Positions 12,721 through 59,425 of a DNA stretch of 64,000 nt are shown here, one piece after another; within the stretch, counting starts at the first letter, position 1; every line of letters begins with the position of its first letter. The notes beneath the pieces are model-generated. The model was not told the DNA's origin. It saw only the letters and a program-made list of their open reading frames with translations, and did no database searches. Source of the DNA: Octopus vulgaris (taxonomy: Eukaryota); the NCBI GenBank assembly GCA_951406725.2, contig OX597826.1, positions 6,014,001-6,078,000 on the forward strand, read 5' to 3'. The position numbers were made by a program, and so were the translations under genes.

Positions 12721-13011
12721 TTGATAAAAACGGTAAGATAACAAAAGAAAGAAAGAAACCTCAATATTATGTAAATAGAGGAAATTTATCTGTAAAATAA
12801 TATGTGACAATTATTGAATAGCCAAGATAACACTCTGAGTTTCGGATGCCGAGGTGGAAATCCACAACACCATATCTTCGGTTATCTGGCCAGATAACCG
12901 AATTCTGGCAAGATAACCGAAGAGATGGTGTTGTGGATTTCCACCTCGGCATCCGAAACTTAGAGTTTTGTTTTGGCTATTCAATAATTGTCACATATTA
13001 TTTTACAGATA
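12721..13011. mobile_element. fold-back pLTR-like element in (TA)n with an HHR-like motif in each arm
   Basis: Inverted arms 12787-12894 and 12904-13011 (~108 bp, few mismatches); (TA)n on both sides. Confidence 0.75.
12909..12975 (+). ncRNA. type I hammerhead-like motif (U4C variant)
   Basis: caagataa CCGAAGA gatg...catcc GAAA c ttaga GTT ttgttttg; stem I pairs 8/8 with two G:U; the minus-strand mirror copy at 12823-12889 has a GTG triplet. Confidence 0.55.
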
Positions 13012-13024
13012 TATATATATATAT

Positions 13025-13656
13025 AACAACAATTGAGGAACGGCTACAATAGGCCGTTCGACCCACTAGAAATAGCAGCCAGGGCTCCAACCGCAAATAG
13101 TAGTAATTCCGACCGCTGGTGGCAAAATAATTTCTATTGAATTTTTTGCTACCCTAAATTGATTAATTGATAATTTTCTGATTAATTCCGAAATTGAATC
13201 GGCAGTTTATATTTGCTGCCGATAAGTTGGGTCGAGTACGATGATTTTGAAAATTTTAGGTCAGATATTACCTAGGCATGGAGGTAGCTGCCTCGTGTAA
13301 TTTCTGTCCCTTCTGGCTCTTTTACTGATGAGCGCGTTGGCCTTTTGGAAGATTGACTTGATTAAGTTTAATTTAATTTAATCAGGCTGGTTTACCATTA
13401 AAAAACGCCGAAACAATGCATTGTCTAAAGAAGAACAGGGTAAATGTTTTTTTTTATTTTTCCTTAGATTTCGGAATTACAACTATTTGCGGTTGGAGCC
13501 CTGGCTGCTATTTCTAGTGGGTCGAACGGCCTATTGTAGCCGTTCCTCAATTGTTGTTGAATTTATTCATAGTCTCTAACTATTTCCTCTTTCTCACTAG
13601 ACCGCTGGTGGCAAAATAATTTCTATTGAATCTTTTGCTACCCTAAATTGATTAAT
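13025..13656 (+). mobile_element. non-coding HHR-bearing Penelope-pLTR/retrozyme-like element in (TA)n
   Basis: 57-bp direct repeats 13111-13167 and 13600-13656 (period 489); 87-bp inverted repeat 13025-13111 vs 13472-13558; internal HHR; no ORF. Confidence 0.8.
13318..13432 (+). ncRNA. type I hammerhead ribozyme
   Basis: tctttta CTGATGA g(c)gcgtt...aacgcc GAAA c aatgcatt GTC taaaga; complete core, long stem II hairpin, palindromic stem III; predicted cleavage after 13425. Confidence 0.8.
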
Positions 13657-13853
13657 ATTTATATATATATATATATATATATATGTGTGTGTGTGTATAT
13701 ATATATATATAATATATATATATATATATATATATATATATATATATATATATATATATATATATATATATATATACATATATATAATTTCTTTTTTCAG
13801 AAGGAGATGAAAATCCAAGGCTGTGAAGAGTTTAGAACATTTATAAATAGAAG

Positions 13854-13901
13854 GTCTTACAGCTGTTTCCAAGATATTTATTATATCCCCTCATCGGAGA
13901 C
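13854..13901 (-). ncRNA. minimal type I hammerhead motif (U4C)
   Basis: Reverse complement: gtct CCGATGA ggggatataataaatatcttg GAAA c AGCT GTA agac; first stem II pair is G-G (decayed). Confidence 0.65.
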
Positions 13902-14183
13902 AGTGTGAGAAAATGGTTAAGCAATAATTAATTTAGATAACATACGAAATAGAGAGTGCAGTGGAGGAATGAAAATAGATGCGAGATATGCAAGGCTATT
14001 GCATTTGTAGATCCATTAAATAGGCAGAATGGTATACATATAAGATTCCAATACCTTGTGAGTAAAATCCAATAGTTTCTAAAACTGATCATTCCAAGTA
14101 TAAAGTTTGTACATAGTGCTATCGAATCAAGGGTTTTATTTAAAGTGACCTAAAAGTAGGGAATGTATTTGTAAGGTCAAATC

Positions 14184-14406
14184 TGTTGTGTGGACGCACC
14201 CAGACGATAAACTAGGCTAGCCCGATACGTAGATATAGAGGGAGAAGTGTAGACGTCAGCAGTTGAGGAGAGGTCATCCGAACGTGCGATATAACAGTGG
14301 CGACGAGGATGAGATTCTCACACAGCCACTATGTAGTATTGCGACATAGCAGTGGCGCAAGGACTTCGTTGCTCACACAGCCACTGTGTAGTATTGCGAC
14401 ACAACA
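14184..14406 (+). mobile_element. small TG...CA element with tRNA-Ser(GCT)-like primer binding site
   Basis: Termini tgttgtgt / acacaaca are inverted; ...tataaca G TGGCGACGAGGATGAGAT at 14298-14315 matches 17/18 of the complement of the metazoan tRNA-Ser(GCT) 3' end as recalled; flanks aatc/aaac. Confidence 0.55.
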
Positions 14407-14502
14407 AAACCGAAAACAGGAAGAGAGGAATAAATTCCTCGACTTTACTCTATATTTCGTTTCTTATCTAAATTAACTATTGCTTGACTATTTGTTCACA
14501 TC

Positions 14503-14550
14503 GTCTCCGATGAAGGGATATAATACATACCCTCGAAACAACTGTAAGAC
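14503..14550 (+). ncRNA. minimal type I hammerhead motif (U4C)
   Basis: gtct CCGATGA agggatataatacataccctc GAAA c aact GTA agac. Confidence 0.65.
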
Positions 14551-56200: not shown

Positions 56201-57117
56201 TATACGTGCATCTATGGATTATAAGTATAATATAATATATACATACAAACATACATACATACATATATACATTCATACATATATATATATATATATATAT
56301 ATATGTATATGTATATTTATATATGTATATATGTATATATATATATATATATATATACATATACATATATATATATATACATGTATGTATATATGTATGT
56401 ATGTATGTATGTATGTATATATATATATATATATATATATATATATATATATATATATATATATATATTACTTTGTATATTTGATTTATATTGCAATATC
56501 CTACTGTAGATTAAGAGCGAATATAAACATATTCCATATCTGGTTTTGGTGTGTGGAAAGGATTTCCTGACAGGAATTTTCACGGTTTGTTAACCTTTCC
56601 ACTGAGTACATTAATCAGCTTACTTCATTAATGAACTGGAGAGTTCCGCCGCTTATTAACAGCTGCAAATCAGAACAATGCATGAGGGAATAACATGTCT
56701 TATCTATTTGCATTGCTATATTTTGTAACTGTTAAATTTTACGAATGTGTGTGTTTGTGTGTATGTACATTCTATGTGGGTGGGTGTGCATGTAATATAT
56801 GGATATGCGTGAGTGTAAGTGCGTGTACATATCTGTTTGTGTATATAAACATGTGTGTGTATGTGAGTGTGTGTGTCTGTAAATGTGTACGTGTCTATGT
56901 TTAATTTGTAACTAATTTTGTCACAATATATATATATATATATATATATATATATAATATTAATAATATATACATGCATATATATATATACATATATACG
57001 TATAGGTACATACTTACATCAATACGTATATAGGTATATATATATATGCATGTATATATATATATATATATATATATATATATATATATATATATATATA
57101 TACATATACATATATAT

Positions 57118-57562
57118 ATGCATATGTGGGCACAGGACGTCATGAAACGTGTACATCAAAAAAGTACTAAGCACGAGTACATGGAACATGAAATATTGTT
57201 TCGAACAACGAAAGACACAAATGGAAAACAAAACAAACAACATAAAGAACGACCCTTCATCAGTTGTTAGCTGTTTTTCTCGTCTCTTATTTCGAGCATT
57301 TAACAACAATATACGCTTTCCGTTAAACAGTTACTATCGAAAATCAATTAAATAAAATTGCGATTTTGCGGAGGGTCGAAATAATTAACAACAACAGGAC
57401 AGTGAAAACAAATAGAAAGGGCTGCTAAGCCTAAATTAGGTTGTGGTGCCGAACTCGTAAATCAAGCTAGGACAGGAGACAAACAAAAATCGTATGACCT
57501 CTCTGAGAACCACCTCTCATTCTTTTCAGAGGTACGGTAACGTGTCGAATCTTTCTGCCGCA
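57118..57562 (-). mobile_element. pLTR-like element next to (TA)n, homologous to 35650-35815
   Basis: Shared tgtgggcacagg.cgtca.gaaac...gaacgacc.ttcat.agttgtt; minus strand contains CTGATGA. Confidence 0.5.
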
Positions 57563-57573
57563 TATATAGACTT

Positions 57574-57660
57574 CAAGCATCAACCCTTTCCATCCATGAT
57601 TTCAACACAATATTCAGCAGCTTCGTATAACTGTCTGATTCGAGTTTAAGGCCATGCTGA
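57574..57660 (-). pseudogene. Tc1/mariner (DD37D/maT-like) transposase fragment
   Basis: HGLKLESDSYTKLLNIVLKSWMERV resembles GL.LNSD.YV.LL..VVKPW.ERV, which precedes the second catalytic D. Confidence 0.55.
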
Positions 57661-58669
57661 TCCGTTGTTCGTAGAATTCTGGCGAGCGGACGTAGAACGC
57701 CTACTGTCTCCCTCTCCGTTAGCCATAGCATCGTAGTTTCAATCGCATCTTTCCTTGTGACGTATTCCAATATTTACGCTATTCACGGATCATTGAGCAG
57801 CAGTCATGGTTTCGTCACATAAATATCAAGGGTGAATTACCATGATACAAGTAACACTTATTCAATATCCTGAAGTCTTCTTCTATTACTCTCTATCAGA
57901 TAAATTTCTCGCAACTCTAAATTTAATCTATTTTCTCTATATCCCTGTTGACTAATCGCAAAAACTGTTCCTCAAAAAAGGAGACATACATATTGGTTGA
58001 ATATAGACCAAACATCCTATATATTGATCAGATTTTCGTGACACATAAATTCGACAAATATTAAAACGTATCTCTTAGTCATTGGCGTATTTTGCTTCTG
58101 TACCCTTGAATGTATCATGGGAGAGAGGGCATTATGTTTATACTTCTTTATTCCAGATGTTTAATATTTTTATGAACTAACTGAAGCGCGGGATGAACAT
58201 CTGCATACTATACATATCCAACGTGATAAATTTACTCATCCATCACAAGAAACGGATCTCATTTATGTAGATTTATTTATTTCTTTATTTATTTAATAGT
58301 GCCACGACAATAATGTGCAGATTTTTTACTTTCTTCACTGTGTGCATTAATTAGTATATTAGATGCAGAGAAAATCAATTGAAATGCCCTAATATAGAAA
58401 ATTGTGTTTCAAAAAGAAATAGTTACTTCAAAAATACAGACTTTGATATCAAAATTGTGAGAAGATGCCGAGTAAAGCCGTGTTCTAGGTTCAGTTCTCA
58501 AAATATTTATCGATCTAGGTGATGAGTATATATATATATAAAGATAGACATCCATACACACATACATACCTACATGCATGCATACATACATACATACATA
58601 CATACATACATACATACATACATACATACATACATACATACATACACATACATATATATACATATATAT

Positions 58670-59010
58670 TCTTTCATTCTTTTACTTGTTTCAGTTAGGA
58701 CTTATTCTTTGTAAACCTAGTACTTATTCGTACGCTTTCTTTTGCCTAACCACTAAGTTACTGGGACGTAAACACACGAACATTGGTTGTCAAGCGATGG
58801 TAGGCGGGGAGGGACAAACACAGGTACAGACACAAATATATACAAATATATATACATATATATATACGACGGAAATCTTTCGGTTTCCGCCTACCAAGTC
58901 CACTCACAAGGCTTTGGTCAAACCGAGGCTATAGTAGAAGACACTTGCGCAAGGTGCCACGCATGTGGTTGGGAAGCAAGCTTCTTACCACACTGACACA
59001 CCTGCGCCTA
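58670..59010 (-). mobile_element. SINE family A
   Basis: ttttacttgtttcag...cactcacaaggctttggtc...cttaccacac...gcgcct. Confidence 0.88.
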
Positions 59011-59051
59011 TATATATATATATATATATATATATATATATATATATATAT

Positions 59052-59425
59052 AATTTTAATCCAAACGAGAAACAAAAAAACACAACAACAATGGAACAAT
59101 TACAGTATTATTATTAATAGGCGCTCGGGAAATGGAAGCAGGGAGGTATGACGTTTCGAGCGGAGCTCTTCGTCGGAAACATAAAGAAGGAAGAGAGAAG
59201 AAAGAAAGATCCCAGAGCGGGCAACAGGGATAGAGAAAAAAAACGACTGGTGTTTACGTGTTACACATGGTGAAAGGCAGATGTTTACGATAACAAGAGC
59301 AAAGTGGGTTTTTAAAGGCAAAAGAGTGGAGACAAGGTTGGTAACAGCAGATGTGTGTGTATGTGTGAGTGTGTGCGTGTGCGTGTGTGTATGTGTGTGT
59401 GTGAGGCGAGATAAAAAAACAAAAT
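59052..59425 (-). mobile_element. family H pLTR-like element in (TA)n
   Basis: (TA)n on both sides; HHR motif at 59146-59180. Confidence 0.65.
59146..59180 (-). ncRNA. minimal hammerhead motif (U4C, extra A after A9)
   Basis: Reverse complement: gttt CCGACGA a gagc tcc gctc GAAAC GTC atac. Confidence 0.65.

Follow-up and report, generated by a model that had tools for sequence, protein, structure and literature searches.

Type I hammerheads beside (TA)n tracts in Octopus vulgaris: probable 3' ends of Penelope-like element families and a likely retrozyme-like non-autonomous unit

Introduction

A stretch of 64,000 nucleotides of the Octopus vulgaris genome (GCA_951406725.2, contig OX597826.1, positions 6,014,001 to 6,078,000, forward strand; here called the window, with positions counted from its first letter) holds a scatter of small type I hammerhead ribozyme motifs in or next to microsatellites. 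These motifs are probably the ribozyme-bearing 3' ends, or pseudo-long terminal repeats (pLTRs), of at least ten families of Penelope-like elements (PLEs), six of which are 5'-truncated copies of protein-coding elements of Hydra or Neptune type, and one of which, at 13318 on the forward strand, is a 490-nt head-to-tail unit with no open reading frame (ORF), in which we see a likely non-autonomous PLE that resembles retrozymes and depends for its mobility on Hydra-type proteins. Judged by sequence, the bulk are new members of known PLE clades and the last family, denoted B, is a new and well-defined retrozyme-like non-autonomous PLE. An initial annotation of the window had proposed a diverse population of non-autonomous ribozyme elements, a description that fits B alone; A, C, E, D, H and I are truncated ends of protein-coding PLEs; for most motifs, but not for B, the more ordinary case that it had itself foreseen, in which a family is just the 3' pLTR of an autonomous PLE, is the one that applies.

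Hammerhead motifs and families in the window

A type I hammerhead, in the order stem I, CYGANGA, stem II, GAAA, a short and usually palindromic stem III, UH and stem I again, is recognisable at all twelve sites that the initial annotation had listed, with coordinates and strands correct, and the element at 55645 holds a thirteenth, decayed one in its inverted arm, at about 55191-55326 (-). The window is about 32% GC and rich in (TA)n, (CA)n and trinucleotide tracts, and the idea that the motifs are chance matches in such AT-rich, repeat-rich DNA draws on the weak folding z-scores of these small motifs and on Rfam, which gave no match in the window at gathering thresholds; at E<=5, nearly all of the 150 listed of 400 matches were microsatellite-driven microRNA models, with no hammerhead among those listed. 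This explanation is nevertheless vanishingly improbable, as a strict type I descriptor found five matches (12917+, 13325+, 13897-, 14507+ and 45227-) against a mean of 0.13 and a maximum of 1 in 60 local dinucleotide shuffles, the motifs all stand at 3' ends of dispersed families, and the family majorities restore both core and stems.

Self-comparison of the window revealed inverted pairs at 12784-13014, 13779-14625 and 55187-55764, which join 12823- to 12909+ and 13854- to 14503+, so that the twelve motifs and the decayed thirteenth reduce to ten families: A (12823-/12909+), B (13318+), C (13854-/14503+), D (59146-), E (45148-), F (47588+), G (55645+), H (14869-), I (34655-) and J (42144-). 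The initial annotation had spoken of at least five unrelated families; of the ten, D, H, I and J resemble one another outside the ribozyme core. Every family is dispersed across the 2.8-Gb, 227-contig assembly covered by the own-genome searches, in which the best 40 candidates were scored per DNA search; first-look candidates range from 8 (F) to about 3,500 (E and H) and are not copy numbers. The type I core CUGANGA...GAAA...UH with stems I-III is present in the majorities of A, B, C, D, E, F, G, I and J, with U4C in A, C, D and J, and H carries A6U.

Measured against these majorities, 13318+, 45148-, 59146-, 12909+, 13854- and 14869- are intact or nearly so (14869- with its family-wide A6U core), and 12823-, 14503+, 34655-, 42144-, 47588+ and 55645+, about half of the window copies, are decayed. 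The defects include a G at the cleavage site and an altered G10.1 in 12823-, a broken stem III palindrome in 14503+, a deleted cleavage site in 34655- and the loss of G12 in 42144-.

Families that run into protein-coding PLEs

On the motifs of their translated products, six of the ten families run 5' into PLE ORFs, three of Hydra type (A, C and E) and three of Neptune type (D, H and I). These links make eight of the twelve motifs 5'-truncated ends of protein-coding PLEs, with a ninth (J) likely to be another, and the family-by-family link to PLE proteins that the initial annotation had wanted checked was not seen directly for F, G and J. No PLE ORF was found within the window itself in a tblastn search with Hydra and Neptune proteins.

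Family A is represented by an inverted pair of 5'-truncated Hydra-clade 3' ends at 12721..13010 with (TA)n on both sides, made up of a long arm with a tail at 12721-12892 (-) and a short arm at 12906-13010 (+); the hammerhead of the former, at 12825..12887 (-), is decayed, with a U4C core and G at position 17, and that of the latter, at 12911..12973 (+), has an intact U4C core and G-U wobbles in stem I. The insertion is 86-89% identical to the 3' untranslated region (UTR) of an intact 717-aa element in locus L339 (G000:C1:57208000-57217900), which consists of head-to-tail 2,579-2,585-bp units, each with an open 717-aa frame carrying RWK, DKT, CxCx5C, GIY-YIG, CxxC and CxH motifs and an A hammerhead in the 3' UTR. 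A second locus (L106) has the order A repeat (pLTR), broken ORF, 3' UTR. Among the 150 listed matches of a search with the A protein, about 50 (counted by eye) lie in open 717-aa frames, many of them 2.59 kb apart; the Hydra-clade PLE whose 3' end A represents is very young and probably active at present. A homologue search returned 1,009 relatives of about 700 aa, and Pfam gave no match for five broken ORF pieces of L106 and sub-threshold GIY-YIG or RVT_1 only for intact PLE ORFs. A fixed 5' end for A was considered and dropped, since the homology extends further.

Family C comprises a Hydra-type 3' UTR end at 13784..14183 (-), with a near-intact U4C hammerhead at 13854-13901, and an inverted arm at 14434..14616 (+) with a partly decayed hammerhead at 14503-14550; the arms are 83% alike, so that the second is possibly a separate insertion. 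Extended copies of C, when translated, reach a Hydra-type reverse transcriptase (RT) and endonuclease, with the N-terminus not recovered, and the CxCx5C linker, with CxxC and CxH around E and N, is present, without CCHH, in both A and C. The sequence between the two C arms (14184-14433) is another repeat, of lower copy number, in which 62 nt are internally duplicated.

At 45093..45357, family E has a Hydra-related PLE 3' end (45093-45257, -) with an intact hammerhead at 45148-45233, and an inverted tail (45264-45357, +). Open frames of 891-934 aa lie upstream of the E hammerhead in all six loci fetched for long frames, locus L447 has a pLTR-ORF-pLTR arrangement, and the element is somewhat longer than 3 kb. 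The E protein has RWL, DKT, CxxC and CxH motifs and a long low-complexity insert; it lacks CxCx5C but is 39% identical to A over 466 aa of the RT, and E was therefore graded as Hydra-related. An apparent fixed 5' end of E proved to be the inverted tail and was discarded.

Of the Neptune-type families, D is a young 3' stub at 59052..59425 (-) with a minimal hammerhead at 59146-59180 (U4C, an extra A and a weak stem I). [quoted passage not shown] The Neptune RT had no match in a sequence search of the PDB. Family I is an older stub (34574..34808, -) whose hammerhead remnant lies at 34652-34685; two of four translated long copies reach a Neptune endonuclease, with a degenerate linker. The related stub of family J (42036..42217, -; hammerhead 42145-42179) is 67% identical to I over 258 nt and is probably also a Neptune-type PLE end.

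Family H, a stub of about 185 nt at 14779..14963 (-) with a minimal hammerhead at 14867-14904, extends beyond 1 kb in 4 of 30 copies, and all three of these that were translated reach a Neptune endonuclease, with the linker present. Both H and I do so through long low-complexity UTRs. The 3' UTRs of Neptune-type copies (L168, L297) are unusually long (1-2.5 kb) and consist of degenerate (CA)n or (CT)n, so that inspection at short range misses the link to the ORF. Genome-wide, the A6U core CUGUAGA of H has 4,899 exact matches, compared with 188 for the canonical core in the same context. A6 matters for hammerhead catalysis, and the expansion of H to thousands of copies may reflect either an active natural variant or a dispensable ribozyme; this non-canonical family adds value in either case.

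3' ends, (TA)n junctions and truncation

In oriented loci the 3' end is fixed and the 5' homology tapers. A (TA)4 is first reached within 300 nt, and at one or two constant distances, in 24/24 anchored loci of B, 20/20 of E, 19/20 of D and 15/16 of A, compared with 27-46% of random anchors, and more weakly in the old families C (12/17), G (11/17) and I (11/16). Neptune types show a single distance from GAAA to (TA)n (D 103-111 nt, H about 102, J about 120), and two distances are seen in A (54, 120), B (150, 247), C (80, 240) and E (72, 230). The suggestion in the initial annotation that these are PLE-type hammerheads sitting at (TA)n is therefore borne out, with (TA)n at the 3' end; the (CA)n tracts next to Neptune-type copies are largely the 3' UTRs of the elements themselves.

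For the autonomous families, the GIY-YIG endonuclease would nick (TA)n, the AT-rich site near the RNA 3' end would prime reverse transcription, most copies would truncate early to leave a stub of 150-400 nt with a hammerhead, and an inverted second arm with a longer tail would often be added. Nicking at (TA)n, AT-rich priming, frequent 5' truncation and inverted tailed arms all follow from PLE biology as set out by Craig et al. (2021; PMC8557442), and their application to the octopus families is our extrapolation.

That most of the islands might instead be independent non-autonomous ribozyme retroelements is improbable. Short copies do far outnumber long ones and no ORF was found for F and G, but six of the ten families continue into PLE ORFs and their 5' ends taper as in truncation. 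In H, a sharp 5' truncation hot spot lies about 190-210 nt from the 3' end, most of the 30 sampled copies (L279-L308) starting within a few dozen bases of a single site; the 5' motif at this spot has 1,910 exact matches genome-wide, and a local tandem of four copies is present. The hot spot could be an RT stop or the product of secondary SINE-like (short interspersed element-like) amplification, and in a weaker form of the independent-element idea the stub of about 190 nt may be re-amplified as a SINE-like unit; the tandem, however, takes in the neighbouring (TA)n as well, in keeping with local duplication.

Four PLE families (A, B, C and H) are crowded into 2.3 kb at 12721-14963 with (TA)n tracts between them, which suggests repeated insertion into one microsatellite region. 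Abundant SINE-like repeats also adjoin (TA)n in the window (22845-23165, 34344-34500, 42525-43238, 58697-59010 and others), so that microsatellite adjacency is not specific here to PLEs.

Family B: unit, insertions and ribozyme

The window copy of family B (13017..13656, +) is an ORF-less insertion of a 489-nt head-to-tail unit with (TA)n on both sides. With the unit defined from cleavage site to cleavage site, the direct part (13111-13656) corresponds to unit positions 175-489 followed by 1-232, and an inverted 5' arm (13017-13112) to positions 46-141. The 46 distinct B loci collected, among them one pair of segmental duplicates, all align to this unit in permuted form and with variable 5' ends; 45 cross the cleavage junction and seven hold two complete hammerheads, which are 489-490 bp apart in L101, L092 and L102. 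The 3' ends fall at unit 133-141 in 34 loci and at 228-233 in 10, and 22 of the 46 have an inverted arm. The stem III/stem I motif of B has 217 exact matches in the genome and a variant of it, taken from sequencing contigs, has 47, from which 30 loci were fetched; all 30 belong to subfamilies 70-77% identical to B and map onto its unit with the same length and the same two ends. One further insertion has 2.7 units and three hammerheads. Across subfamilies the unit measures 489-497 nt, and its longest ATG frame is 33 aa. No sequence outside the unit was found to be shared among the loci examined (46 of the main group and 30 of the diverged subfamilies). A tRNA-derived SINE was considered and rejected, as ARAGORN found no tRNA in three loci.

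The hammerhead of the window copy (13319..13430, +) is intact, with a CUGAUGA core, a 78-nt stem II arm, a palindromic stem III and a predicted GUC cleavage site after 13425. Across B, stem I has 5 bp and the stem II arm 64-78 nt, and the canonical 6-bp stem I, 4-bp stem II and loop-loop contacts are lacking; on this structure the B hammerhead is a PLE-like variant, which makes B less of a classical retrozyme and leaves the view that it works like one unaffected. The core is kept, with repeated variation only at positions 4, 7 and 17. Covariation in the stems, by which the initial annotation had proposed to judge the ribozymes, was borne out for B in a set of 24 selected and related hammerheads: 98% of cells pair, three pairs are changed on both sides, with compensatory G-C/A-U changes at 10.1-11.1 and A-U/G-C changes in stem III, the proximal stem II pairs in several different sequences, and the covariation score was reached in 0 of 500 shuffles. 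As a circle, B folds strongly (z of -4.7 and -8.2, compared with -0.7 and 0.1 for non-coding parts of A and E).

How might such a unit spread? Cleavage, circularisation and the identity of the helper are for B what we infer from DNA sequence, and we put forward tentatively, at somewhat less than even confidence, that B is a long-lived octopus retrozyme lineage which replicates through a 490-nt RNA, self-cleaved and circular, and relies on Hydra-clade PLE proteins for integration in trans. Insertions of 1.5-3 units would be transcribed by read-through, the transcripts would cut themselves at two hammerheads, probably in dimeric form via the palindromic stem III, and the freed monomer of about 490 nt would fold strongly and likely circularise. 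A Hydra RT/endonuclease would then copy the monomer for more than one turn into (TA)n, giving permuted, more-than-unit insertions. The insertion footprint of B, with its two 3' ends, inverted arms and (TA)n, is common to A, C and E and not to the single-end Neptune types. B also shares, at unit 195-230, a motif of 36-50 nt with the 5' UTR/tail of E (E=0.003), found at 13620-13656 and 45264-45320 in the window, placed between the two 3' ends in both families and kept in diverged E copies. This short motif is the only link of B to an autonomous family and is possibly a cis signal.

The main rival, which we regard as distinctly less likely, is that B is a non-autonomous miniature linear PLE (pLTR-spacer-pLTR) made from uncleaved tandem transcripts, with a minor role for the ribozyme and no circular RNA. 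Of 14 multi-unit arms, 8 start at unit 376-386, where the hammerhead has its 5' edge, which would suit a pLTR boundary at this place, and nearly all B copies span an intact cleavage junction; in addition, PLE hammerheads cleave weakly in vitro according to Cervera and de la Pena (2014; PMC4209133), and Li et al. (2026; bioRxiv 2026.07.22.740005) report that 8 of 9 Xenopus dimers did not cleave. On the other hand, other multi-unit arms start far upstream, at unit 163, 220, 336 and 367, two multi-unit loci of diverged subfamilies start elsewhere, three copies start at the cleavage site (unit 1-3), one insertion holds 2.7 units, and core and stems persist at 25-30% divergence. Repeats of the same locus are closer to each other than the between-locus median in 26 of 27 pairs. 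Contigs of four sequencing runs (three guessed to be RNA and one of unknown type) cover 19-27 of 30 B bins, and these do not tell of circles because the B junction also exists in DNA; no listed dataset holding B is recorded as RNA.

Several observations weigh against this picture, both for the motifs at large and for B as a retrozyme-like unit. The minimum-energy fold of most monomer motifs is not a hammerhead, and the clade names rest on motifs and by-eye comparison, not on a tree. No ORF was reached in the J loci inspected; no parent of F was found among eight DNA matches and two pattern matches, which leaves F with no direct ORF link; and in two DNA searches and one pattern search for a parent of G the copies lead 5' into (GT)n, and neither an ORF nor a tail-to-head unit was seen. 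For B, two of five covariation measures are not above shuffles, and as the set was chosen by a core-fixing pattern and its sequences are related, the covariation is supportive and not a probability. The nearest between-locus copy is often closer than the within-locus repeat, and the closeness of repeats is thus no proof of a circular template. The match between the B and E motifs is weak. A rare ORF-bearing parent of B could escape searches in which the best 40 candidates are scored, and in one of the 46 loci (L105/L175; G000:C12:44889000-44896000) a broken RT fragment of another PLE type joins a B copy directly upstream, at unit 259. Together with the motif shared with the E 5' UTR, these last two points would favour B as the pLTR and 5' UTR of a lost or unsampled autonomous PLE, an explanation we consider quite improbable: after the tail every locus and subfamily examined returns straight to the hammerhead region and never to an ORF. 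Derivation of B from the L105 remnant was likewise set aside, being a single case in 46.

Relation to known PLEs and retrozymes

Much of the finding is ordinary: hammerhead-bearing tails of truncated PLEs were to be expected, and a Hydra element from octopus was already known. The supplement of Craig et al. (2021; PMC8557442) lists Hydra-1_Obim of Octopus bimaculoides, 2,507 bp long, with a hammerhead and a (TA)n target, so that PLEs of this sort have been published for octopus. The Hydra-1_Obim protein is by eye clearly homologous to that of A, although its listed hammerhead differs and A, C and E, with U4C cores or long stem II arms, are other families. The Hydra-clade traits given in the same paper are a short single ORF, RWK, DKT, a CxCx5C linker, a C-terminal GIY-YIG that lacks CCHH, a hammerhead in 3' position and (TA)n as the target; these motifs are found in A and C, and the A unit is likewise short, with a 3' hammerhead and (TA)n junctions. 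E differs in the missing CxCx5C and the long low-complexity insert, and A in that its open frames, nearly identical to one another, stand in tandem arrays.

Neptune-type PLEs with minimal hammerheads were described by Cervera and de la Pena (2014; PMC4209133), who found most motifs in other animals as single truncated copies, as most are here too. D, H, I and probably J resemble those described in DKG, the CX2-5CxxC linker, the C-terminal GIY-YIG and a minimal hammerhead with an extra nucleotide after A9 and a palindromic 15.2-16.2, and differ from them in 1-2.5 kb (CA)- or (CT)-rich 3' UTRs, in the A6U expansion of H and in a U-U mismatch in stem I of D.

Like the animal non-LTR retrozymes of PMC7229834 and bioRxiv 2026.07.22.740005, as these sources describe them, B is an ORF-less unit of a few hundred bases and less than 45% GC with one type I hammerhead per unit, occurs as monomers to short multimers and co-occurs with PLEs; the two or more consecutive units by which retrozymes are recognised are present in B (two hammerheads in 7 of 46 loci and three in one). 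It differs in its 490-nt unit and non-canonical long-stem-II hammerhead, in being known here from DNA alone, and in forming dispersed 0.5-3-unit insertions with inverted arms and (TA)n in place of long tandem arrays. B can also be compared with Chlamys PLEs such as MRC1 (PMC8557442), which are putatively non-autonomous, have pLTRs and form head-to-tail multicopy insertions. These belong to green algae, however, are mostly without hammerheads and have a 3' end like that of their autonomous partner, whereas B shares only the short weak motif with E.

The main text of the 2020 retrozyme paper (Cervera and de la Pena 2020; PMC7229834) does not contain the word octopus, the 2026 preprint (Li et al. 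2026; bioRxiv 2026.07.22.740005) drew its invertebrate samples from three insects and one anthozoan, and our literature search, which covered neither Repbase nor Dfam, found no report of an octopus retrozyme and cephalopod hammerheads only in the 2021 PLE paper. A 2026 octopus repeat annotation (PMC13282606) describes 31 recently active Penelope-like families, with no mention of ribozymes in its accessible part, and B may be among its many unclassified families. An in vitro system has been named as the next needed step for PLEs (PMC8557442), and the young arrays of intact A ORFs and the long open E frames are candidates for a trans-mobilisation assay.

Mobilisation of animal retrozymes by PLEs has been proposed from their co-occurrence and from pLTR similarity. 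The insertion footprint that B has in common with A, C and E is a further argument and points to the Hydra clade as mobiliser. If the proposal for B is true, it would be a retrozyme whose insertions bear the mark of a single, identifiable PLE clade, and its genome would still hold dozens of intact helper ORFs, and the question of the animal retrozyme mobiliser would become directly testable.

Families F and G and other repeats in the window

Family F (47547..47665, +) is an old, low-copy family with a hammerhead at 47588-47639 whose stem III is decayed. Family G (55167..55785) is an old inverted pair of 55167-55474 (-) and 55562-55785 (+), with decayed, long-stem-II hammerheads at 55645-55759 (+) and about 55191-55326 (-).

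Other retroelement remnants are also present. Between (TAA)n tracts at 18416-19869 (+) are two overlapping frames of a non-LTR retrotransposon 3' end (zf-RVT, E=9e-6), which we take to resemble an R4/Dong-type element, and at 30332-32207 (-) are decayed frames that presumably resemble the endonuclease and RT of an RTE-type long interspersed element, for which Pfam gave no confirmation. A 69-bp minisatellite at 27322-27879 has eight copies with 92% matches.

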